Notes: a model not told the origin generated them from the sequence alone. 64,000 bases of DNA from Candidatus Woesearchaeota archaeon (GCA_003599055.1 QZIM01000002.1:70097-134096), one strand, 5' to 3'. Positions 5,461-62,544 are shown, counted from the stretch's first letter. A program made the numbers and translations.

Positions 5461-5632
5461 TTTAAGAGAAAAATGAAAGAAAAAGTGCCAGTCAAAAGCT
5501 GGCAAAGACGGCGGCGCTGGGCGATGCTGGTTCGCCCGCCAAGCTGAGAACTTGGTGTCAGAAATGACCACGGGGTTCAAAAGCTTTGCGGTTTGGGCCG
5601 GGAGCGTGAAACTCCCCGCGCCGTCGTTCTTT
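5461..5632 (+). ncRNA. conserved structured element, copy 1 (candidate small RNA, T-tract end)
   Basis: About 170 nt that are roughly 80% identical to 6160-6330. Both copies begin tttaagagaaaaa, share an identical 53-nt core (cggggttcaaaagctttgcggtttgggccgggagcgtgaaactccccgcgccg), have complementary 5' (acggcggcg) and 3' (cgccgccgt) ends, and finish in a T-run. The shared ORF peptide does not extend beyond the core. Confidence 0.45.
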
Positions 5633-6069
5633 TACTTGTACTTTTCCTGCAGTGCATTCAAAAAGTGCGCAAAGTCCGGCGCGAGCGGATATTCCTGTAA
5701 TCGCGCAATCTGCAAATATTCAAGTTTGCTGAACCGTTCAGGCTCCTGAATTGCGGGTGTCCCGCGCTCAAGTCGCATCAAAAACTTGTACGCGACTGCT
5801 TCTTTTCCGCTTGGTATTTTGAACGGCACTTTTGCAAAGAGTTTAGGCGAAGAAAATGCAACGTCTCCCAGTTCTTCTTTTCCCTCGCGCACGGCTGCGC
5901 GTGCAAAGTCATCAATTGTTGGCGATGACGCGTCCTCGCAATCAGTTTCCTCAACTCTTCCGCCGGGTGTTTCCCAATGCGCGTGTTCCGGCCGGTACAA
6001 GAGCAGAAGCTCTTTTCGCTCGTTCACGATAAGGCAGCTGGCGAGCAGGAGTTTGCCGTTGTGTATCAT
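5632..6069 (-). CDS. NUDIX hydrolase
   Basis: Nudix box GGRVEETDCEDASSPTIDDFARAAVREGKEELG (Gx5Ex7REUxEExGU-like). Confidence 0.8.
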   Translation of the reverse strand: MIHNGKLLLASCLIVNERKELLLLYRPEHAHWETPGGRVEETDCEDASSPTIDDFARAAVREGKEELGDVAFSSPKLFAKVPFKIPSGKEAVAYKFLMRLERGTPAIQEPERFSKLEYLQIARLQEYPLAPDFAHFLNALQEKYK

Positions 6070-6159: not shown

Positions 6160-6330
6160 CTTTAAGAGAAAAAGAAGAAAGAAAGCCGCCGACGCACGTC
6201 GGCAACGGCGGCGTTGAGCAATCTGGTTGCTCGCCAAGCTGAAACCTTGGTTTCCGAAAGGATATCGGGGTTCAAAAGCTTTGCGGTTTGGGCCGGGAGC
6301 GTGAAACTCCCCGCGCCGCCGTTCTTTTTT
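6160..6330 (+). ncRNA. conserved structured element, copy 2
   Basis: Second copy of the element at 5461-5632. It lies between the NUDIX gene start and the stop of the nucleotidyltransferase gene and ends in ttcttttttt. Confidence 0.45.
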
Positions 6331-8244
6331 TCACATCAGCACTTCATATTCCTTCCCAAACCAGCGTTTCAAACTCTCAAAGAGCGGTTCGCGAAGGCGA
6401 ATGGGCAAAGGAACGAGTTTTGCGAGCGCGTGTTCAAATTCTTCGAGCGTGCAGGCAGAGCTGTTCCCAAGTGAGCCGTCTTGTTCTACCGGTGCTTTTT
6501 CCATTGGTCGGTTTTTGTCGTCAAGGTCAACGACAATGAATGCCGTGTTGCCAAGGATGGTGACTTCGCCGTGTTTGTTGCCGTGTTTTACGCGAAGTTT
6601 TGCGCGGTCGAGTTCTCGTGCGCGCTTGCGGTGCATGTGGTCAACTAAGAACTTGAGCAGTTCGCCGGTTTCTTTGCGTACTTTTTCAAGGTCGTTTTTG
6701 CCAAGTTTTCCCGCATCAAAGAGTCCTTTGCTTTTGACTAAGTCGTGCAGGGTTCGCAAATACTTTGCAGGCACTTTGCCGGTTGCGATGAGTTTCTCTT
6801 CAAAAACAATCGGAAGTTCTGCTTCGCGCGCGGCTTCTACGCCTTCAATTTTTAAGACGTCGCGAAGGACGGTTTGCAACGTGTCATACATTGTGACCAT
6901 GTTTTCGTCGTCTTTTTGTTTCTCAATCTGCGTGAACAGCCGTTTGAGTCGTTTCATATACTTCTCGCAGTCGGCCATCAGCTTGTCCACGTCTTTTCCG
7001 GTGAAGTCCGGGATTTTTCCGTGCTCCATGTCTTTGTAGATGCCGATGACTCTCTCCAGGATTTCGACGTATTCTTCTTCAAGCAGTCCTTCTTTTTTGA
7101 CAAAAATTTCCCGGACAACGCCTGCGGTTTCTTTTGGCGCGGGCGGGGGAACGCCGTACAGCATAAGGGCGGCTTGTGTCGGGCTGTGGATTCCCCAGTA
7201 GAAGTCTTCGGTGGCAATGGTTTTGAGTTTTGCCTTGATGCGGTCAAGCGTTTGCTCTCCGCCTGAGAGGAACATATCGATTGCTTCGGCGGATGGTTTA
7301 ATCTTGCCCATCTTGAGCAGTTGTTTCCAAGGCATAAAGATGCCGCGGTCATACAAGGGCACGCCGTCGCGAAGGAACGTGAAGCAAACAGGGTTTGATT
7401 CGCGCATCATATCCCAGAAGTCAGTCAGGATGTAGACTTGGATGGACAGTTTGTTGCGGATGCCGGTTATTTCGCCTGCTTCAAAGGTCATTTGCTGGAT
7501 GATGCCGCGCAGCTTGTCGCGCAGTTCCGCGCGCGTCATTTTCTTGACGTCAGTATCGTCAATAATGACAACAACGTCAATGTCTGATGTCGGCTTTGCC
7601 TGGCCTTTGACCATTGAGCCTGCCAAGACGTACGCGACAATGTATTTCTCAAATTTCTTAAGGACCATTGAGCGGTGGAGTTCCGCAATGCGAATCGCGC
7701 CGAGCATTCCGGTGTCGTAGACGGGTGCGCTCATGCCGATTAATTGCAACAGGTCGTATTTTGCGTCGTAGCAGTTCTGCCACAGTTCCGAGATGAGGAG
7801 TGTTTGCGGGACGATTGCCGGGTCGATTTCTTTGGCCGTTTGCGCCATTATTGCGGAGAGCTTGTCGCGCAGTTCGAACTTGCTCATTTTGGTCGGCTCG
7901 CTGTCGTCAATCAAAACAAGCGTGTGGTATTTGTCCTTGTCCTGCTCGAATCTTTTTTGTTCTTCGGCGAAAATGTCAGGAGGAAGGTTTGGTGAGGGTG
8001 GGCGCGGTGGGGGCAAAAGTGCCATTCCGACAATGTACTTGTCAAACTTTTCAAGGGTTAATTTTTGGAATTTTTCGAGCTTTTCCTTGATTGCCTTCAT
8101 TTTTTCGGCGACTTCAGGGGGAAGGTTGGGAGGTAATTGCATTCCTTTGGGCGCGTCTTTCGATTCGTCTTTCTTTTCTGTTTTCTTGTCGTACTTTTCA
8201 GTGGGCTGCTCGGTTTTTGTTTCCTTTGTTGTTTTCTTTACCAT
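6331..8244 (-). CDS. tandem nucleotidyltransferase-domain protein (Pol-beta superfamily), Lys/Glu-rich
   Basis: Two repeated modules begin KFDKYIVGMALL... and KFEKYIVAYVLAGSMVKGQAKPTSDIDVVVIIDD. The second keeps the GS-x10-DxD nucleotidyltransferase signature, while the first lacks GS and is probably inactive. The N-terminal 35 aa are low-complexity K/E/T-rich. Confidence 0.6.
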   Translation of the reverse strand: MVKKTTKETKTEQPTEKYDKKTEKKDESKDAPKGMQLPPNLPPEVAEKMKAIKEKLEKFQKLTLEKFDKYIVGMALLPPPRPPSPNLPPDIFAEEQKRFEQDKDKYHTLVLIDDSEPTKMSKFELRDKLSAIMAQTAKEIDPAIVPQTLLISELWQNCYDAKYDLLQLIGMSAPVYDTGMLGAIRIAELHRSMVLKKFEKYIVAYVLAGSMVKGQAKPTSDIDVVVIIDDTDVKKMTRAELRDKLRGIIQQMTFEAGEITGIRNKLSIQVYILTDFWDMMRESNPVCFTFLRDGVPLYDRGIFMPWKQLLKMGKIKPSAEAIDMFLSGGEQTLDRIKAKLKTIATEDFYWGIHSPTQAALMLYGVPPPAPKETAGVVREIFVKKEGLLEEEYVEILERVIGIYKDMEHGKIPDFTGKDVDKLMADCEKYMKRLKRLFTQIEKQKDDENMVTMYDTLQTVLRDVLKIEGVEAAREAELPIVFEEKLIATGKVPAKYLRTLHDLVKSKGLFDAGKLGKNDLEKVRKETGELLKFLVDHMHRKRARELDRAKLRVKHGNKHGEVTILGNTAFIVVDLDDKNRPMEKAPVEQDGSLGNSSACTLEEFEHALAKLVPLPIRLREPLFESLKRWFGKEYEVLM

Positions 8245-9002
8245 GAGGTTCCTCCGTGCGTGATGCTGGTCGCGCCGTTTGCGATTGTTTTGAATATGTC
8301 AAGTGCTGAGTTGCCTGTCCATCGAAGTGTGTTGACGAAGTCAAGTGCGACGTCGTGAAGCCCGTTGCGGGCAGGGTTGAGACGGATGTTTGGCGCAAGT
8401 CCTGCGATGTTTTCGTTTCGTATTGTTTCCATCCACGCAATGCTGAATGCGTGCGCTTTTGCCTCTTCGTCGCGCTTGTCGGGAAGCGTTGGGGACAGGA
8501 CGTGGCCGATTTCGTGCCCAAGAGTTAAGAGCATTGCATCCAGATGGTCTTGCTTGACAACAATAGTGCTCACTCCTTTGCCGAAGTTGTTGATGCTGTA
8601 GCCGACGACTTGTCCGCGCGCGGTGATAGGGTGTCTTTTTTCAAAATCGGCTGCGTTCTGGATGGTGATGGTGATGTGTTCGCGGGGAAATGGTTGTCCC
8701 GTGATTTTTTCAAATGCTTGTTCAAGAACGCTCTGGATTTCTCCAAGTTCGGTAACGATTGGTGTCCACGGTCGGTTGTCTTCAAGGTATGTGTCAACAA
8801 TGCTTTCGTGCGGTCCGCCGTATTGTGCGGGGGGGCGGGCTTGGTATTCGTTTCCCGAGTACGCGTGTTGCTCGCTTCGTGCGGGTGAGCTTCCATAAGC
8901 GCTTCCTGAGGAATAGCTGCTGCTGCTGCCGTATGCAGCGCGCGAATTATTTCCGCCATAGGACGTTCCGCCTCCGTAGCTTGAACCGCTGAAATAACTC
9001 AT
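8238..9002 (-). CDS. putative zinc metallopeptidase (HExxH) with Ser/Gly/Tyr-rich N-terminus
   Basis: HEIGH motif in LTLGHEIGHVLSP. The first 60 aa are a prion-like low-complexity tract (SYGGGTSYGGNNSRAAYGSSSSYSSGSAYGSS). ATGA-type overlaps with both neighbouring genes. Confidence 0.55.
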   Translation of the reverse strand: MSYFSGSSYGGGTSYGGNNSRAAYGSSSSYSSGSAYGSSPARSEQHAYSGNEYQARPPAQYGGPHESIVDTYLEDNRPWTPIVTELGEIQSVLEQAFEKITGQPFPREHITITIQNAADFEKRHPITARGQVVGYSINNFGKGVSTIVVKQDHLDAMLLTLGHEIGHVLSPTLPDKRDEEAKAHAFSIAWMETIRNENIAGLAPNIRLNPARNGLHDVALDFVNTLRWTGNSALDIFKTIANGATSITHGGTSW

Positions 9003-9199
9003 TTCTTGACTGCCTCTTCAAGGTTGGGCGCTTCCTTTTTGGCTTCTGCTTCAAGGTCTACGCCGAGGTCTTTGAGCCCTTTGAGGTGCGCCTGCATCAG
9101 TTGTTCAACAATCTGAACTATGCGCAAAAGTTCCTGTCTTTCCTTTGCAAGCGTGGTGAGCGCTCCTTTGTGGAATCCGATTTGTTCTTCGTTTGCCAT
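8999..9199 (-). CDS. small coiled-coil protein (66 aa), first gene of nucleotidyltransferase-peptidase operon
   Basis: Short charged helical ORF. Its stop overlaps the start of the HExxH gene. Confidence 0.4.
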   Translation of the reverse strand: MANEEQIGFHKGALTTLAKERQELLRIVQIVEQLMQAHLKGLKDLGVDLEAEAKKEAPNLEEAVKK

Positions 9200-9280
9200 T
9201 TTGTGTTCTCCGGCGAATAGTCCTAAGGGACTATTTTGTCATACTGGTGTTTATAAAGACGTTTTGCGATAAAAAGCTAA

Positions 9281-9296
9281 GTGACAAAAAAGTCAC
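9281..9296. promoter_or_regulatory. perfect palindrome gtgac-aaaaaa-gtcac in divergent intergenic region
   Basis: 5-bp arms around an A6 spacer, located between the divergent genes 8999..9199(-) and 9334..9873(+). A second hairpin, tagtcc-taag-ggacta, lies at about 9214-9229. Confidence 0.3.
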
Positions 9297-9884: not shown

Positions 9885-10274
9885 TCAAATCCCGTCCTTG
9901 ATGATTTCAACACCGGGCAGTGAGTGGAAGTCAAAGTCACGGGTGATGAGCGTGCTCGATTCTTGTTGCGCGCTTGTATAGATGAGTGCGTCAATCGCTC
10001 CAAGGGAGTAGGTGTGGCCTATCTCTGCGGCATTGTTCGTGAGTGTGTGGTCGACATCAATGAATGTGCTGCGGGCTTTGATGAAATCGATAATCTGTCT
10101 GATTTTGTCATCGTTGATTTTATCACGCAGGAGTTTCCGTCGAATCTCGTAGAGCGAAAGACAGGAGGTCAGGATGATGTGCGGTCCTGTGACGAGCGCG
10201 AGCACGCGTTCGCTCTTCTCGAAGAAGTAGCCAAGCCAGGCAGAGGTGTCAAAGAAGTAACTAGAACCGGTCAT
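9885..10274 (-). CDS. vapC: PIN-domain ribonuclease (VapC toxin)
   Basis: N-terminal FFDTSAW with the first catalytic Asp, about 129 aa, conserved acidic residues later in the sequence. It overlaps the upstream small antitoxin gene. Confidence 0.75.
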   Translation of the reverse strand: MTGSSYFFDTSAWLGYFFEKSERVLALVTGPHIILTSCLSLYEIRRKLLRDKINDDKIRQIIDFIKARSTFIDVDHTLTNNAAEIGHTYSLGAIDALIYTSAQQESSTLITRDFDFHSLPGVEIIKDGI

Positions 10275-10461
10275 CCTTGTCTCGGAGGTCTCTCATAATC
10301 TCTTTCCATGATGCTTTGCCAAGCGCGCCATACATCGACTTCCGTGGCGCAGCGTTTCTCATCAGGTCCAATATCACTTCGTCGTACGATTTTGCACCCT
10401 TGGATTTGCGCATCTGCTGGAGAAGATGCAACGTTCGCTCCTGCACTTGAATCGTCGTCAT
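10261..10461 (-). CDS. vapB: VapB-type antitoxin (COG1753-like)
   Basis: 66-aa ORF (MTTIQVQERTLHLLQQMRKSKGAKSYDEVILDLM) matching the small archaeal antitoxins paired with PIN toxins. It has a 14-nt overlap with vapC. Confidence 0.55.
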   Translation of the reverse strand: MTTIQVQERTLHLLQQMRKSKGAKSYDEVILDLMRNAAPRKSMYGALGKASWKEIMRDLRDKDDRF

Positions 10462-40379: not shown

Positions 40380-43300
40380 CCTCCCTCTCCTCCTTCTGCC
40401 GCTTTTCGTTCTTTTTCTTGTTCTTCCATATCTTCTTGGATGTCTTCCATTCGTTTGCAGTATTGTCCGGGGACGGACTTGAATAAATTCTTGGTTCTTG
40501 CCATGCTGACGGTGCTGGTGACTGCTTCGGCAACAAGGGAGATTGTCCTGAAGACTGCGCAGGCGGTGAATGCAGGGCTGGTCTCGTAGATGCTGCACAT
40601 GGGCATGCAAAGGAGGGTGAGCCCGACTGTTACGACGGCGACGGGGTTTGACAATAGTTCAGTGAGCATTCCTGCAACTCTGTTTGCGAATTGTGCAAAG
40701 GGTATTGCGGCAAAGACTTGTCCGATGACGTATTGGCAGAGGTTGTATTGGTACATTTCTTGGCAATAACTGATGGGGTATCCGCGTTCTTTAACTTCGT
40801 CGTGCAGGCAGACTGCCTTAAAGCAGTTCACCTGGCGTAATTTTTCAACGTTATACACAATGCCGGGCAGGCACAGGCAGAACACGCTCCAAACGAGTGA
40901 GTCTTTGATGCTGGGCATTCCAAGGCCGAGGACTTCTGATGCTTTGGAGCAAAGGGGGTTTATTCCTCCGCTAAAGTAGGAGGTGAATGCTTGTCCGGAG
41001 GTTTGTTCTTGTTTTCCTGTTTCCGGGTCTATTTTGGCAACTTCTTGAGGGGTCGTGATGGGCTTTCCGTCATCACCAACTTTTCCGGTCGGGGTTTGCT
41101 GTTCTTCTGTAACACTTCCTTTAACCTCTCCTCCGCAGTTGATGAAGAAGCAGAAGAGTGAGAGTGCTTCTCCGATGGATTGGAATGTTCCTTGGGTTGC
41201 GGTGTTGGTTCCGCACAGTGCTGCGTTGACGCCTGCGACGCCTGCGGCGGCGGGGGCGCCGATGCCGGTGTTGAGAAGCCCGTCGCGCATCGTGCCAAGG
41301 GCGGCGTTAATGACGGTGAGGACATTGATGAGTGAGCTGACAATGCTTTTTACCCTGCACAGCAATTCAAAATAGTACAGTGCTTTGCGCAGTGTTCCGA
41401 GCCAGTCCGCGTTGGCAAGGGCGTCGCCCATTGCGCGCTCGATTTGCTTGTCAACTTCCGCGTACATATCTTCTTGGGGTTGGTTGTAGAATTCGGCAAG
41501 GTAGGGGACTTTGATGACTTGGGGTTGTGGTGAGATGACCCCGCCGCCGGGTATTGCCCGTTTGGTGAGGATGGTCATTGGGCAGGTGACATTTACGGAG
41601 TTGAGATAGTAGTTTTTGGCCTCAAGCTTGAAAACAACAAGCGGATTGCGGCTTCCTTCCTGCACGTTCGAGGTGTAGACGTCGCTCACAACGTTTTCAA
41701 GGTCGCCGATGCATTCGGATGGGTTTTCCGGCCCGCGGATGCGGTAGGGTTCGACGTCTCTGCGTGTGCTGGTTAATTCAACTGAGCAGCTCGCGTATGG
41801 CGGAATGAGGCTTGCGGTTGCGCGGTTAATGAGTTTGGGCGTGCACGTGACGCGCGGTATCCAGTATTGCCCGCGTGTTTCGTTGTCAAGCCCAAAGACT
41901 TCAAGCGCGGCTGAAGTGTTGGCGACATTGCCTGCATCATCAGTAAACACGAATGGTATTGTTGCAAGGTAGGGTCCTGACAGTTCGATTTTGCTTTCAA
42001 ACGTGCACTCAATTGCGGAAGTGTCATTCTCAGGGACGCCGCAAATGCCGGGGACGGTTTTGCCGCCGATTTCGCTAAAGTTCGCGTACGCGTCGGTGAA
42101 GTTTGCGCTCGAGACAACGTATTGTGCGAAGTTTCCGCGAACAGCTCCGGTAATGTTTGGGTTATCTTCGCCTTTGATAATGCGTGAGCTGATGATTCGC
42201 GGAGGCGCAGGCGGCGAGTCATCGTAAACAATCGGAACTGCAGTTTCTTTTCCTGCAGTGTTGTCAAGGTCGTCTGCGGAGCCGGAAAGGACGGTGACAG
42301 TGTACCCTCCTTCAGGGGTTCCTTTGGGCGGATTAAGGGTCCACGTGCAGCGCCAAATGCTTCCTTCAGAGGGCGCGCAGTATCCTGCCTGTACAAAGTT
42401 TGGAAGGCCAAGTTCGCTTAAGTCAAGTGCGGCAAGCCTGCGGTTGATGCCGATTCCTGCGCCGCCTGAATTATCTTTTTCGTCAAACTCAAGGGTCAGC
42501 GCGGTTCCTCTGCCAAGGAGCGGTATGTTGCTGCGGAACCGTTCGGAAACAACGCGGACAAACTGCGGGCCGACGTTGTCGCTTTTGACAGAACACGAGT
42601 AGTCTTTTGCCGCGGCATTCCCAAGCTTGTCTTTTGCCGTGACGGTGATTTTGCAGATGCTTGGCTCGACAACGGGGACGTTTTGCCAGATGGCAATGTT
42701 TCCTGCAACCCGGTCGGGTGTTCGAAGCCCGCTAAGGGACGGGGCAATGGAGGACAGGTCTGCTTTTATCTCTTTGGAATCAACGCCGATTTCATCGATA
42801 ATTTCAACGGTGACGGTGGCAATGGTATCCTGTCCTTTGCGGATGTGGGTGAGCCGAACGCCCTTGCTATCAACAATGCTTGGCTCGCGGATGTCAGGAG
42901 GGGTGGAATCAATGATGATTTGTTGGCAGGAGGGCAAGCTTTCCTGGTTGACAAAGTCAGTGGCGTATGCGCAAAGGCCGCCGCTTTCCGTGAGGCGTAC
43001 GGGAATTTGGCGGTCTTTTGAGCAGATGCCGGGCTGTCCTGTTTCTTCAAGGACGGGTTTTCCATTGAGGGTGAGCGTGATTTTTTTGATTCCGCTGCAG
43101 TCTTGGGGTTGCCCGTGTGTTAAGCCGTAATCGTGTGCGGAGAGGCGGACCGCAACTTCGCCCGTGCTGTGGATGGGTGTGACATTGTAGGCGACGATTT
43201 GCGGGGGCAGCCCGTCGATGCGCAGGTTTTTGGTTTCGGACTTGACGATTTTGTCATCGTCGTTTCGCAGTTCGAGGCGGAACGTGAGCGGCTCGTACGC

Positions 43301-43597: not shown

Positions 43598-45735
43598 TTG
43601 CGTATCACCGGCCAGATGAGTGCGGGGTTGCTTTCCACGTAAAGCTGCGGCACTTTGAGCTGTTCTAAATCTTCAATGACGCGTTCTTTTTCTTCTACTT
43701 TGTCAATTGCGATGGTGAATTGCCGAAACTCTATTCCCTGTGCGCCGTGGAGTGATTCTGGGCTGAACGTGTATTCATACGTGGTTGTCCCGTAGGGGAA
43801 GGGTGTTGATTCGTTAAAGACGAGCGGTTCTTCGGGAACCTTGAAGCATTTTTCCTTGCTGCTGACCAGTTTTTTGACGGTAAAGCAGCGCTCGTCAGGG
43901 GGGATGGTGATGTCGTCGCGAAGGAGGCTCGTGATTTGGACTTCGTATCTGCCGGGAACGAGCTTGATTTCTGCGGGCTTTCCGCCCAGGATTTCTGCGA
44001 CGGCGACAAAGGGTTCTGCGCCGGGCTCTTCCTTGCGCTTGAGGAGGATGACGGTTTGTTGTTTGCTGTGAGGTCTTGAAAGGCCTGCGGCAGCTTCGTA
44101 TTTCCACGGGCTGCGCTTGTCGATTTTGGTTATTTGGTAGTTGCGGACGCTGACGTTGACCCATCGTTCGGGTTCCAGAAGTGCCTGCAGGCGCAGCGGC
44201 TCTTCACGGTGGGTGTCAAGCGCGCGGGTGGTGCTGCTGAAGTCTTTTCTTGAAAGGAGCAGTGTTCCGCCAACGCAGCGCGGGAATCGGGAGAGGAACG
44301 TGCCGTCGCGTGTTTTTCCGAGGTTGCAGACTTGGTCGCCGCAAAGGTAGGTGACGGATACGTCATCAAGCGGCCGGCGGTTTTCGCCGTTAAGGACGGT
44401 TAGCGTGATTTCGCCGGAGGTTCGTTGGTCGATGTTGCAGAAGATGCTCGGAGGGGTGTTTGCGGGTGGGGGCAGGGTGATGTTGGTGTCTGATGCGAAT
44501 CGTTTTGAGCTGCGCATATTGTGCTCGAGCATAATGTTAAAGGTGTACCCTTCGCCGCCAAGGGCGTCGGGGTCGCGGATTTCAAAGAGGACAGGGTAGC
44601 TCAAGTCGTATGCGAACTCGTAGCGGTTGAGCGTCATGGGGAGCATCGTGAAGCTCGTTGCGCTGTCTGCCGTGCACAGTTGTCCTTTGCAGTTGAGGTC
44701 AAAGTAGGGTTCCCACCAGTCAAGGTAGGCAAAGCGTGCTTCAAGGAATCTGCGGCTGTTGTTTGTCGGTATCAAAAATTGCCGGTTATACACGAGTTCG
44801 TACAGTTCAGGGTCGCGAACGTCGGGTGATTCGATGTATTCGTAATTTTTGGTGCCGAACACCTGGATGAGGGGAATATACGATGTGAGCAGTCCTTTTA
44901 ATTGTTGGAGGACTTCGTATTCGACCCAGAACACGCCTGCGTCGGGTCCGCCGAATTTGAGCCCGCGTGAGGGCGGCAAGAGGTCTTCTTCGATGCCGCT
45001 GAACGTTCCGATGACGGTGTTGGTTGCCTGTTCGAGAATTCCTGTTTGGCTTTGGTGCGTGGTGATTTCGCTTGCGAGCTCGTACATTTCGCGAAGCGGT
45101 ACAATGGTTTCGATGGCATAATCGTTCACGGAGAAGGTTTGGTCTTCGCACTGGAGTTGTAATGGGTAATTGGCGGTGGTGATGACGCTGATGTCGGCAA
45201 CACTGACGCTTGCCTCCGGCTCGTCGATTGCGCGAAGCGTGCATCCTTGGATTTCTGATGTTCCGATGAGGCATTCGCTGAGTTGTTCTTGGACGTATCG
45301 TTCGAGTTGTTCTTCAATGCTGTTTCTGCCGTCTGCTTTGCGAAGCGGGGGGCGTTTGCTTGCAAATTCACAGTCCGCAGTGCACGCATTTGGCGATTTC
45401 ATATGCCACCAGTAGGCCACGTTCGGTCCTGCGTCGGGTGCCAGTTGGACCGCGTCGCCTTCTGTTGTATAGAACGGATTGGCGCTGAGCTGGTTTTGGT
45501 CAATATAGCCGCCGGATGCGCCGAGTCTGCGAAGCCCGTCTTCTGTCGCATCAAGAAGGCAGCTGTGGATGAGGTCGCGAACGGGCTGTGCGCGCTCGGG
45601 AACTTCTGAGAGTGAGATTTGGGCAAGCTCAAGCGCCTGTTCTTGTGTCCTGCCGGTGAGGTAGAGTGCTGCGCCGATAATGAAGAGAAGACTGATTCCT
45701 ATTATTATGAAGACGGTTATCTGCCCCTTTTTCAT
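43594..45735 (-). CDS. large type-IV-pilin-like protein (class III signal peptide), 713 aa
   Basis: MKKGQITVFIIIGISLLFIIGAALYLTGRT with the conserved DLIHSCLLDATEDGLRRLGASGGY block. Paralog of the 694- and 301-aa proteins and first gene of a three-gene minus-strand operon. Confidence 0.7.
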   Translation of the reverse strand: MKKGQITVFIIIGISLLFIIGAALYLTGRTQEQALELAQISLSEVPERAQPVRDLIHSCLLDATEDGLRRLGASGGYIDQNQLSANPFYTTEGDAVQLAPDAGPNVAYWWHMKSPNACTADCEFASKRPPLRKADGRNSIEEQLERYVQEQLSECLIGTSEIQGCTLRAIDEPEASVSVADISVITTANYPLQLQCEDQTFSVNDYAIETIVPLREMYELASEITTHQSQTGILEQATNTVIGTFSGIEEDLLPPSRGLKFGGPDAGVFWVEYEVLQQLKGLLTSYIPLIQVFGTKNYEYIESPDVRDPELYELVYNRQFLIPTNNSRRFLEARFAYLDWWEPYFDLNCKGQLCTADSATSFTMLPMTLNRYEFAYDLSYPVLFEIRDPDALGGEGYTFNIMLEHNMRSSKRFASDTNITLPPPANTPPSIFCNIDQRTSGEITLTVLNGENRRPLDDVSVTYLCGDQVCNLGKTRDGTFLSRFPRCVGGTLLLSRKDFSSTTRALDTHREEPLRLQALLEPERWVNVSVRNYQITKIDKRSPWKYEAAAGLSRPHSKQQTVILLKRKEEPGAEPFVAVAEILGGKPAEIKLVPGRYEVQITSLLRDDITIPPDERCFTVKKLVSSKEKCFKVPEEPLVFNESTPFPYGTTTYEYTFSPESLHGAQGIEFRQFTIAIDKVEEKERVIEDLEQLKVPQLYVESNPALIWPVIRK

Positions 45736-61474: not shown

Positions 61475-62544
61475 AAGCAGCATTGATATCGCTTGGAAGC
61501 ATTTCATCGAAATGGCTTATTGAGGCGCTTGGGAAGCAGTTTGATTCTGTTGACCATATTGATGTTGCGGAGTTGGAAGTATCGCTTGGCGGAAAGGAGG
61601 GCAGGGTGTTATATCAGGGAAACCCGCTCCCAAAGTATGACTGCATTTATGCGCGCGGGAGTTTTCGGTACGCAGTGTTGCTTCGTGCGGTAACAACGCT
61701 GCTTCAGGAAAACACGTATATGCCGCTTCGTGCGGCGAGCTTTACGATTGGCCACGATAAGTTGCTCACGCATTTGAAATTCCAGGAAAACGGCGTTCCG
61801 CAGCCGACGACGTATCTTGCGGCAACTGCTGCAGCGGGAAAGAAAATTCTGCAAAAGGTCAAGTTTCCGGTGGTGTTTAAGCTTCCTGCGGGAACGCACG
61901 GCAAGGGCGTGATGATTGCGGACAGTCAGGAGAGCGCAAGTTCAATGGTTGATGCGCTCGCGCTCCTCAAGCAACCGTTTTTGATTCAGGAGTTTGTCGA
62001 GACGGGAGGGACTGATTATCGCTGTATCGTGGTGGGTGATGAGGTTGTTGCGGCAATGAAGCGTGTTGCGGGAAAGGGTGAGAGCAGGGCAAATATTCAC
62101 GCAGGAGGGCAGGGAATTCCAATTGATGTTGATGCAAGGACAAGGCAGGCAGCGCTGCTTGCTGCAAAGAGTTGCGGGCTTGAGGTGTGCGCGGTTGACA
62201 TTTTGCCAAGTGCAAAAGGCCCGCTTGTCCTTGAGGTGAACTTAAGCCCCGGCCTTCAGGGGATTACAAAGGTTACCGGTCTTAATATTGCGGAAAAGAT
62301 TGCAAAATTCCTGCGGGCAAAAACAGAAGAGCGCCAAAACGTGCGCAAAAAGGCGGTGTTGCAGGAGGTCGAGCCTGAGCAGGAGGTTCACGGCGAGCTC
62401 GATTTTCGCGGAGACCGTATTTTGCTCCCTGAGGTGGTGACGATGGCGTCAAAAATTAAGCAGGGGGACGAGGTTGTCATTCGGGCAAAGAAGGGGCAGG
62501 TCTATATTGTGAAACAGAAGGGAAAGGAAAAGAGTAAAGAATAA
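61471..62544 (+). CDS. RimK-family alpha-L-glutamate ligase (ATP-grasp)
   Basis: ATP-grasp blocks (VVFKLPAGTHGKGV, FLIQEFVE...DYRCIVVGDEV, VDILPS...LEVN) with a K/E-rich C-terminal extension of about 60 aa. Confidence 0.8.
   Translation: MKAALISLGSISSKWLIEALGKQFDSVDHIDVAELEVSLGGKEGRVLYQGNPLPKYDCIYARGSFRYAVLLRAVTTLLQENTYMPLRAASFTIGHDKLLTHLKFQENGVPQPTTYLAATAAAGKKILQKVKFPVVFKLPAGTHGKGVMIADSQESASSMVDALALLKQPFLIQEFVETGGTDYRCIVVGDEVVAAMKRVAGKGESRANIHAGGQGIPIDVDARTRQAALLAAKSCGLEVCAVDILPSAKGPLVLEVNLSPGLQGITKVTGLNIAEKIAKFLRAKTEERQNVRKKAVLQEVEPEQEVHGELDFRGDRILLPEVVTMASKIKQGDEVVIRAKKGQVYIVKQKGKEKSKE

Follow-up and report, generated by a model that had tools for sequence, protein, structure and literature searches.

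We study three adjacent minus-strand genes in a 64-kb stretch of a metagenome-assembled genome of Candidatus Woesearchaeota, a stretch that we refer to as a whole as the window. The genes encode a small 66-aa protein, a 254-aa peptidase with a tail rich in Ser, Gly and Tyr, and a 637-aa nucleotidyltransferase (NTase). Our reading, which we consider nearly as likely to be right as to be wrong, is that this trio is a cellular module of Woesearchaeota, fixed in the chromosome and co-regulated, that is built on a domesticated MNT-HEPN enzyme (a minimal nucleotidyltransferase, MNT, joined to a HEPN-type domain) and is not a mobile element. The reading is carried by a gene order that is constant within one clade, by a promoter motif that the three gene families share even where they are apart, and by the architecture of the NTase.

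Gene order and a shared promoter motif

The sequence-only reading described three minus-strand open reading frames (ORFs) forming an operon, and both parts of that description hold. The small-protein gene (8999..9199, 66 aa) is the first of the unit and is followed by the peptidase gene (8238..9002, 254 aa) and the NTase gene (6331..8244, 637 aa); the locus tags of the trio are C4580_00495, C4580_00500 and C4580_00505. With its overlapping junctions and its fixed order in one clade the trio is an operon-like unit. The further statement that the genes overlap by ATGA is correct for the small/peptidase junction, a true ATGA overlap at 8999-9002, and incorrect for the peptidase/NTase junction, which reads ATGgTAA and overlaps by 7 nt (8238-8244). 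Shine-Dalgarno-like GGAG, GGAGG or GAGG stretches lie 7-13 nt ahead of each of the three starts. The ORFs are not chance products, because each belongs to a large family: more than 3557 homologues for the NTase, 3184 members for the small protein and, for the peptidase, 409 representatives of 50% identity clusters (296 of them below 1e-30) in an exhaustive hidden Markov model search, compared with the 92 found by a word-indexed search.

All three families are widespread in Woesearchaeota and Nanoarchaeota. For comparison we use related loci, 1.40 Mb in all, that are labelled L001, L003, L005 and so on. A scan centred on the NTase, with one genome per species, gives 80 loci that are all of Woesearchaeota or Nanoarchaeota by protein content. 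Just 10 of these 80 have the small and peptidase genes immediately 5' of the NTase gene and in its orientation, as do L001, L089 and L093-95. The trio is adjacent and co-oriented in L001, L005-10, L012, L022, L046, L089 and L093-95, each time in the order small, peptidase, NTase, with -4 to +2 nt between the first two genes and -7 to +12 nt between the last two (+86 in L089). In a neighbour-joining tree of 87 NTases the trio loci all fall within one clade, and all clade members for which upstream sequence is available (15/15) carry the trio. Because the order is found in every testable member, we take the trio to be a stable, vertically inherited trait of one lineage; outside the clade, a promoter gap precedes the NTase, which stands by itself. 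Linkage to the peptidase in other genomes, which the earlier reading had proposed to check, is therefore kept as a fixed trait of this clade, and to it is added a motif common to the unlinked genes. Many of the NTase contigs (L005, L007-L009, L014 and others) are titled ‘uncultured Methanosarcinales archaeon’, which looks like mislabelled taxonomy.

An alignment of seven trio promoters reveals two conserved boxes in otherwise unalignable DNA. In the window, operator-like box 1 is a perfect palindrome, GTGAC-N6-GTCAC (9281..9296, minus strand), ~84 nt upstream of the small gene, and operator-like box 2, TATGACAAAATAGTC (9229..9243, minus strand), lies ~30 nt upstream of the start of that gene and has one match in the window vs 0.14 expected. 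Between the boxes is a TATA-like element, TTTATAAA (9250..9257, minus strand), assigned by eye as a putative archaeal promoter. Relatives, too, repeatedly have a second box, spaced 54-55 nt from box 1. The pattern TGAC-N6-GTCnCA has 110 sites in the fetched loci vs 5.8+-3.3 expected from Markov-1 simulations, and its exact form occurs at a single site in the window, at the trio promoter. It is present within 400 nt upstream of 19 of 30 small-led units, of 23 of 53 peptidase genes not preceded by a small gene (26 sites forward, 1 reverse) and of 23 of 64 partnerless NTase genes, where every site is forward and the sites cluster 85-162 nt ahead of the first residue in the alignment. For a looser pattern, the density of sites in upstream zones exceeds that elsewhere 31-fold, and the strict sites outside upstream zones number 11, most of them chance-like. 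The trio families share a specific directional cis-element, whether they are adjacent or not, and its presence upstream of unlinked small-, peptidase- and NTase-led units argues that the three families would constitute one regulon.

Several other elements of this region are recorded here. The short palindrome TGAC-N6-GTCA has 5 sites in the window vs 0.65 expected; the four off-promoter copies are at 7566-7579 (inside the NTase gene), 43243-43256, 44352-44365 and 62438-62451, and their spacers are GC-rich, in contrast to the A/T-rich spacers of the operator boxes. A perfect 7-bp palindrome, ATAGTCC-CTTA-GGACTAT, occupies 9217-9234, between box 2 and the Shine-Dalgarno-like stretch of the small gene; at its position L005 and L006 have different hairpin-like sequences, and in other relatives the segment is missing. 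Some loci have a fourth gene of ~112-137 aa and no family ahead of the small gene (L089:4078-4416, L101:4293-4580, L103:439-675 and L135), and in these the operator motif is upstream of the fourth gene (in L135, at 3605).

How far does this amount to a functional link? One could hold that the three are unrelated core genes that genome compaction has packed together in one lineage, with incidental overlaps, since DPANN genomes are compact and have many overlapping genes, no partner of either kind lies within 6 kb at ~65 of the 80 species-level NTase loci and most peptidase loci also lack partners. Commoner NTase neighbours exist as well: on the same strand 3' of the NTase there is a gene for a CBS pair plus zinc ribbon at 31 loci (L003, L007, L008, L011-L016, L020, L022-L024 and others), and at 24 loci (L011, L015, L017, L020, L021, L026 and others) the NTase is followed by two to four tandem paralogues of an unassigned family of 170-200 aa (HIRFKGVWDMQDLYE...), neither family being found anywhere in the 64-kb window. 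We nevertheless find such coincidental packing improbable, given the directional motif upstream of all three families even when unlinked, the invariant order within the clade and several independent pairings of the genes, including the peptidase beside short relatives of the NTase.

These pairings are seen when the comparison is centred on the peptidase (80 metagenome loci), where a small gene is upstream in 18 loci and a long NTase downstream in 13-14. L113 and L137 have small and peptidase genes but no NTase, and L071 has small and NTase genes but no peptidase. A gene for a 270-290-aa MNT+HEPN-like protein lies downstream of a divergent peptidase, on the opposite (minus) strand, at L087:4062-4886, L112:2684-3529, L154:1878-2720 and in L171; these short proteins, on DPANN-like contigs, are homologous to aa 187-432 of the NTase and are without the RxxxxH motif discussed below. 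Where the peptidase lacks NTase or small partners, its neighbour is often a DUF483 gene on its 3' side (15/80 loci: L090, L092, L143 and 12 more) or a convergent gene of the proteasome-assembly-chaperone family PAC2 (9/80 loci: L126 and 8 more). Two candidate neighbours in L003 were set aside: the 248-aa divergent gene on the 5' side of the NTase is not homologous to the peptidase, and the Janus/Ocnus-like gene 3' of the NTase is unique to that locus.

A tandem nucleotidyltransferase with a probable HEPN-type domain

The 637-aa protein had been read as two Pol-beta-type repeats of which the second alone keeps GS...DxD, and three kinds of comparison now agree with this. The two halves align to each other (BLASTP E=3e-6, 26% identity over 69 aa). 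An AlphaFold model, made with an alignment of 59 homologues and having a mean predicted local distance difference test score (pLDDT) of 79, contains two alpha/beta domains with equal element order, aa 43-177 and aa 180-299. The residues of 87 homologues then distinguish the two. Domain 1 (7714..8118, minus strand) is a degenerate MNT-like fold in which an invariant PPP insertion replaces GS...DxD in the homologue alignment. Domain 2 (7348..7707, minus strand) has the residues G209 S210, D221, D223 and D275 and, judged by them, is a catalytically intact MNT/Pol-beta domain. The first four do not vary among the homologues, and LAGS(209-210)...SDIDV corresponds to the motif hG[GS]-x9-13-Dh[DE]h. 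At position 275, 84/87 homologues have D and 3/87 have E; the location of D275 suggests that it would serve as the third catalytic carboxylate. Because the halves align, the model shows two like domains and the motif is in domain 2 only, sequence and model together confirm the NTase as a tandem pseudo-dimer in which domain 2 alone is predicted, by motif, to be catalytic. Pfam NTP_transf_2/Polbeta covers aa 197-248 only; PF01909 scores 32.2 bits vs a 21-bit cut-off and PF18765 scores 29.7 vs 26.9 in the window NTase, and both are matched by 59/59 aligned members.

Ahead of the two domains is a Lys/Glu/Thr-rich tail (aa 1-42, 8119..8244, minus strand) that is predicted to be disordered from its composition and a pLDDT below 50 for aa 1-37. 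After domain 2 the model continues with long helices (aa 319-547) and then a beta-rich C-terminus. The first part of the helices, aa ~319-470 (6835..7290, minus strand), is a predicted HEPN-type domain with the motif [R/Y]403-K-D-M-E-H408-G; the remainder (6334..6834, minus strand) is divided by model secondary structure into a helical region, aa 471-547, and a beta-rich domain, aa 549-637, and this C-terminal part (aa 471-637) has no Pfam or PDB match. Two other domain assignments were rejected. Matches to a SAP domain in 34/59 members span just ~16 residues of the DVKKMTRAEL helix and are spurious, and matches that would identify domain 1 as DUF7935 are under the cut-off.

The HEPN-type assignment (HEPN-T/UPF0332, PF05168) comes from several weak likenesses. 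Pfam HEPN is matched by 3/59 members (best E 1e-3), and the family profile aligns 90 residues with the UPF0332 protein AF0298 (2hsb) at a weak E of 0.22, placing R403-K-D-I-E-H408-G of the NTase on R-x4-Y-G of AF0298; the JGI family name for the NTase is likewise nucleotidyltransferase/‘UPF0332 family’. We found no paper in the literature on a Woesearchaeota nucleotidyltransferase with HEPN. The Rx4H motif (consensus R403-K-D-I-E-H408) is kept in 84/87 homologues, with K404, E407 and H408 invariant. Arg403 is replaced by Tyr, with the rest of the motif conserved, in the window NTase and in L006, its nearest relative, and a second time, independently, in L071. In the window NTase Rx4H is therefore incomplete (Y403) and the HEPN catalytic motif is not present in full. 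The NTase alignment has no conserved Tyr next to Rx4H; H408 is followed by G, [V/T/K], K and K.

What kind of enzyme does this architecture suggest? Single-sequence searches of the PDB give no match, and NCBIfam gives weak matches to MntA, ANT(9) and AadA that are far under cut-off (26 bits vs 340). The structure model is more informative, with top Foldseek matches in the PDB to ANT(9), AadA, ANT(4')/KNTase, MntA, the Sulfolobus minimal NTase (Sso 2rff) and Hailong HalB; it superposes on MntA 8xeo with a template modelling score (TM) of 0.70, and 7ae9, 7bxo and 6m6w are also among the MntA matches. The best structural matches are the ANT/KNTase enzymes (ANT(9), AadA, ANT(4'), LinB; Foldseek probability 1.0, E 3e-4 to 7e-3), which resemble the window protein in that a helical, HEPN-clan domain for substrate binding comes after the NTase domain. 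They differ in being ~250-aa antibiotic modifiers, and nothing points to an aminoglycoside substrate in a DPANN archaeon. A second likeness is to GlnE/GlnD, which combine duplicated NTase modules with helical HEPN-clan domains and modify proteins (PMC3710099), a likeness of logic only, as no sequence or fold match to them was obtained.

According to Anantharaman et al. (PMC3710099), HEPN domains fused to MNT are domesticated and serve to bind substrate in enzymes that modify proteins, GlnE and KNTase among them; they typically lose Rx4H. The NTase fits this scenario, and we infer by analogy that it is a domesticated MNT-HEPN fusion, with two features in addition: a dead duplicate MNT and an Rx4H motif that is, unusually, kept in most members.

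The kept motif also raises the possibility of an RNA-directed enzyme, in which the NTase would add tails to RNA 3' ends and/or the HEPN domain would cleave RNA, the peptidase and small protein being accessory or merely co-regulated. We regard this as unlikely. Such a role would suit the retention of R-x4-H in 84/87 homologues with invariant K404, E407 and H408, the Lys-rich N-terminal tail, weak MTPAP-like palm matches in 59/59 members and a gene for tRNA dihydrouridine synthase (Dus) on the 3' side of the NTase in its closest relatives. The MTPAP matches, however, span only the generic GS...DxD segment, and the top 50 Foldseek PDB matches of the NTase include no CCA-adding enzyme or poly(A) polymerase structure, just as they include no cGAS/CD-NTase; the CCA-adding family PF09249 (tRNA_NucTransf2) has no match in the window NTase or in the 59 aligned members. 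The comparison with CD-NTase/cGAS and CCA-adding families that the sequence-only reading proposed thus returns neither, and a likeness to MNT instead. Arg is exchanged for Tyr in the window NTase, L006 and L071 while the rest of the motif is conserved, and therefore an Arg-dependent RNase activity cannot be essential.

The peptidase, the small protein and a possible mechanism

A HEIGH motif and an N-terminus rich in Ser, Tyr and Gly had been ascribed to the peptidase, and both are borne out. The catalytic domain (aa 66-254, 8238..8807, minus strand) has HEIGH at 8502-8516, that is, at aa 163-167, and H163, E164, H167, E179 and E180 are invariant in 76 sequences, as are K182, A183, F186, W190 and P210-A-x-N-G-x-H216. 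The consensus of the 76 homologues reads G-H-E-I/L-G-H, then D-E-E-A-K-A-x-A-F-S-x-x-W, then P-A-x-N-G-x-H, which sets the invariant EE 12 residues past HEIGH within the helix DEEAKAxAFS. The AlphaFold model of the peptidase has pLDDT above 90 over aa 68-250 and places HExxH and EE on helices 154-168 and 176-196. From these residues and the model, the peptidase is probably a zincin of the HExxH...EE (gluzincin) type, in which E179/E180 may act as ligand.

The enzyme shares with gluzincins such as M48 and M78/ImmA-IrrE the HEIGH motif and the downstream invariant EE, and its fold matches are only to gluzincins (ACE, oligoendopeptidase F, LTA4 hydrolase and M32). All of these matches are weak, with probability at most 0.3, and no curated family covers it: the window peptidase finds none in the Pfam, NCBIfam or PADLOC libraries, the best Pfam matches among the 76 members are M48 at E 0.036 or worse (7/76), M78 at 0.099 (1/76) and SprT at 0.11, and the match to PADLOC peptidase_U41 is weak (E 0.02).

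The low-complexity tail (aa 1-65, 8808..9002, minus strand) is 58% S+G+Y with a pLDDT below 60, and its Tyr residues (3, 9, 15, 24, 30, 36, 48, 53 and 61) begin with one every six residues. Its S/G/Y character is conserved in the 76 homologues, where the median tail has 65 residues, 41% S+G+Y and 12% Tyr. In its composition, its regular Tyr spacing and its few charged residues the tail is like FUS-type domains; the likeness to the FUS low-complexity domain is compositional only (a weak E=6 for the peptidase profile), and the host here is an archaeon.

The small protein is the best conserved of the trio, with 69-86% identity across relatives compared with 55-80% for the NTase and 37-58% for the peptidase, and its family has 24 invariant positions. 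Its matches to HTH_11 and LinB-like_C are all sub-threshold, and an hhalign comparison with the NTase profile finds no relationship to any part of the NTase.

Taken together, these features allow a mechanism to be proposed. The dead MNT copy, domain 1, would scaffold the active MNT domain, which would use NTP to nucleotidylylate a hydroxyl of a macromolecule, as MntA, GlnE, DrrA and ANT do, and the HEPN and C-terminal domains would hold that macromolecular substrate. GlnE and GlnD adenylylate or uridylylate Tyr residues of proteins. We favour a protein as the target, somewhat likelier than RNA: the enzyme may modify its own HEPN domain or else a partner, for which the Tyr-rich tail of the zincin peptidase is an attractive candidate. 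The small protein would either bind the shared palindromic operator or act as an adaptor subunit, and the module would act in protein or RNA quality control. The fully specified version, in which the tandem MNT-HEPN enzyme nucleotidylylates the regularly spaced Tyr residues of the FUS-like peptidase tail and so switches assembly or activity of the peptidase, with the 66-aa protein as repressor on TGAC-N6-GTCnCA in a regulon that spans Woesearchaeota, is a long shot.

Several observations weigh against our preferred interpretation of a fixed, co-regulated module. The NTase loci mostly stand without partners, as described above, and about three quarters of the peptidase loci have no NTase nearby; about one lead gene in two lacks the motif; and the family-library search with the small protein gives no significant match to a DNA-binding domain. 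In addition, the top fold matches of the NTase are small-molecule (antibiotic) NTases, and the widespread Rx4H motif would suit an RNase or an RNA role equally.

Mobility, flanking genes and implications

The MNT-HEPN pair is normally the commonest selfish toxin-antitoxin (TA) module. A rival reading takes the trio for a conflict system: a fused type VII TA system in which MNT neutralises a HEPN RNase, or else a defence system not yet described whose effector is a protease. Type VII HepT/MntA is an MNT-HEPN pair (PMC7641770), and FhepTA is a fused, 276-aa form (PMC13000451). HepT/MntA modules are marked by the MNT+HEPN combination, and the family studied here likewise joins a minimal Pol-beta-type NTase to a predicted HEPN domain with Rx4H. 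MntA and Hailong HalB are among the best fold matches of the NTase, the short 270-290-aa relatives beside some peptidases are of the size of FhepTA, TA genes lie nearby (vapBC in the window, ParE in L093 and MazE in L003), and PADLOC returns weak matches to the candidate NTase families PDC-S09 and PDC-M05A.

We think a conflict system very improbable. The window NTase, at 637 aa, has an extra dead MNT and ~170 extra C-terminal residues; it has lost the Arg, and it has no Tyr beside the motif, which is the oligoAMPylation site in HepT and FhepTA (PMC13000451). Its family is 48-80% identical, with a single locus per contig examined, and is vertical across an archaeal order with conserved synteny, whereas HepT/MntA and FhepTA are patchy and on mobile elements. 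Among 2.9 million viral contigs (IMG/VR) there is no relative of the NTase or of the peptidase. The PADLOC matches cover ~50 residues of generic NTase motif, and no specific defence model and no CBASS model (cyclic-oligonucleotide-based anti-phage signalling system) is matched. The trio does resemble CBASS, with its CD-NTase and Cap3, in that an NTase gene stands beside a metallopeptidase gene; but it has no effector gene and no cGAS/CD-NTase likeness in the fold matches, and its peptidase is an HExxH zincin, not JAB/MPN or another known defence protease. The TA pairs near the module differ: VapBC in the window (9885-10461), ParE+DUF2683 in L093 (5361-5860) and MazE+DUF4258 in L003 (10883-11427). 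Because the types vary by locus, we attribute them to general TA abundance and not to a linked component.

The proposal of nucleotide-signalling defence is accordingly not upheld: the fold likeness is to MNT/ANT/KNTase with HEPN, the defence search gives only generic sub-domain matches, viral relatives are absent and inheritance is vertical, beside housekeeping neighbours (Dus, CBS and tRNA synthetases). By these comparisons the trio looks like a chromosomal module and not a mobile defence system.

The flanking elements that had been noted around the trio can be recognised in part. NUDIX (E 1e-11), VapC (PIN/VapC, E 7e-16) and a 100-nt duplicate (90% identity) are there; VapB is weak (0.015), and the ‘HTH-like’ ORF of the window matches no family. 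In L005 and L006, the closest relatives, the Dus gene lies ~20-80 nt past the NTase. In the window, the two are separated by 1.3 kb, made up of the two 100-nt copies, the NUDIX gene and a 116-aa ORF, an insert that is missing in these relatives. A tBLASTn search with the window NUDIX, HTH-like ORF, ORF116 and a 486-aa ORF finds no counterpart in 95 related loci, which leaves Dus as the only syntenic flank among the window neighbours compared. Beside the trio in the other genomes examined, nothing corresponds to NUDIX, the HTH-like ORF or vapBC, which are thus, on this comparison of loci, local accessories.

The 100-nt direct repeats themselves (5534-5633 and 6229-6328) bracket the NUDIX gene, and each starts directly after a stop codon, that of the NUDIX gene or that of the NTase gene. 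On the + strand each copy folds into a long hairpin, the two copies showing compensatory differences at its apical GAAA loop, followed by a hairpin and a U-run; they have no Rfam match at the gathering score or at a relaxed E-value, and no copy in the related loci. Over the window as a whole (1-64000), every 2-kb bin has a positive GC skew (0.02 to 0.29) and all bins but one have a negative AT skew, so the + strand is G- and T-rich with no switch point.

DPANN archaea have tiny genomes, and genes that are kept at 50-80% identity across an order are therefore likely to be important; all three families of the trio carry only hypothetical or generic-domain annotation. In Woesearchaeota the MNT-HEPN combination appears to have become fixed in the form of a large enzyme that carries a dead duplicate domain and is inherited vertically, which would be a turn in MNT-HEPN evolution, and the conservation of a Tyr-rich, FUS-like tail on an archaeal peptidase is unusual. 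Were the long-shot mechanism of tail modification true, it would amount to a circuit that controls proteostasis in ultra-small archaea through protein AMPylation. The common operator motif would tie three orphan families into one pathway and offers a handle on regulation in an uncultivated lineage.

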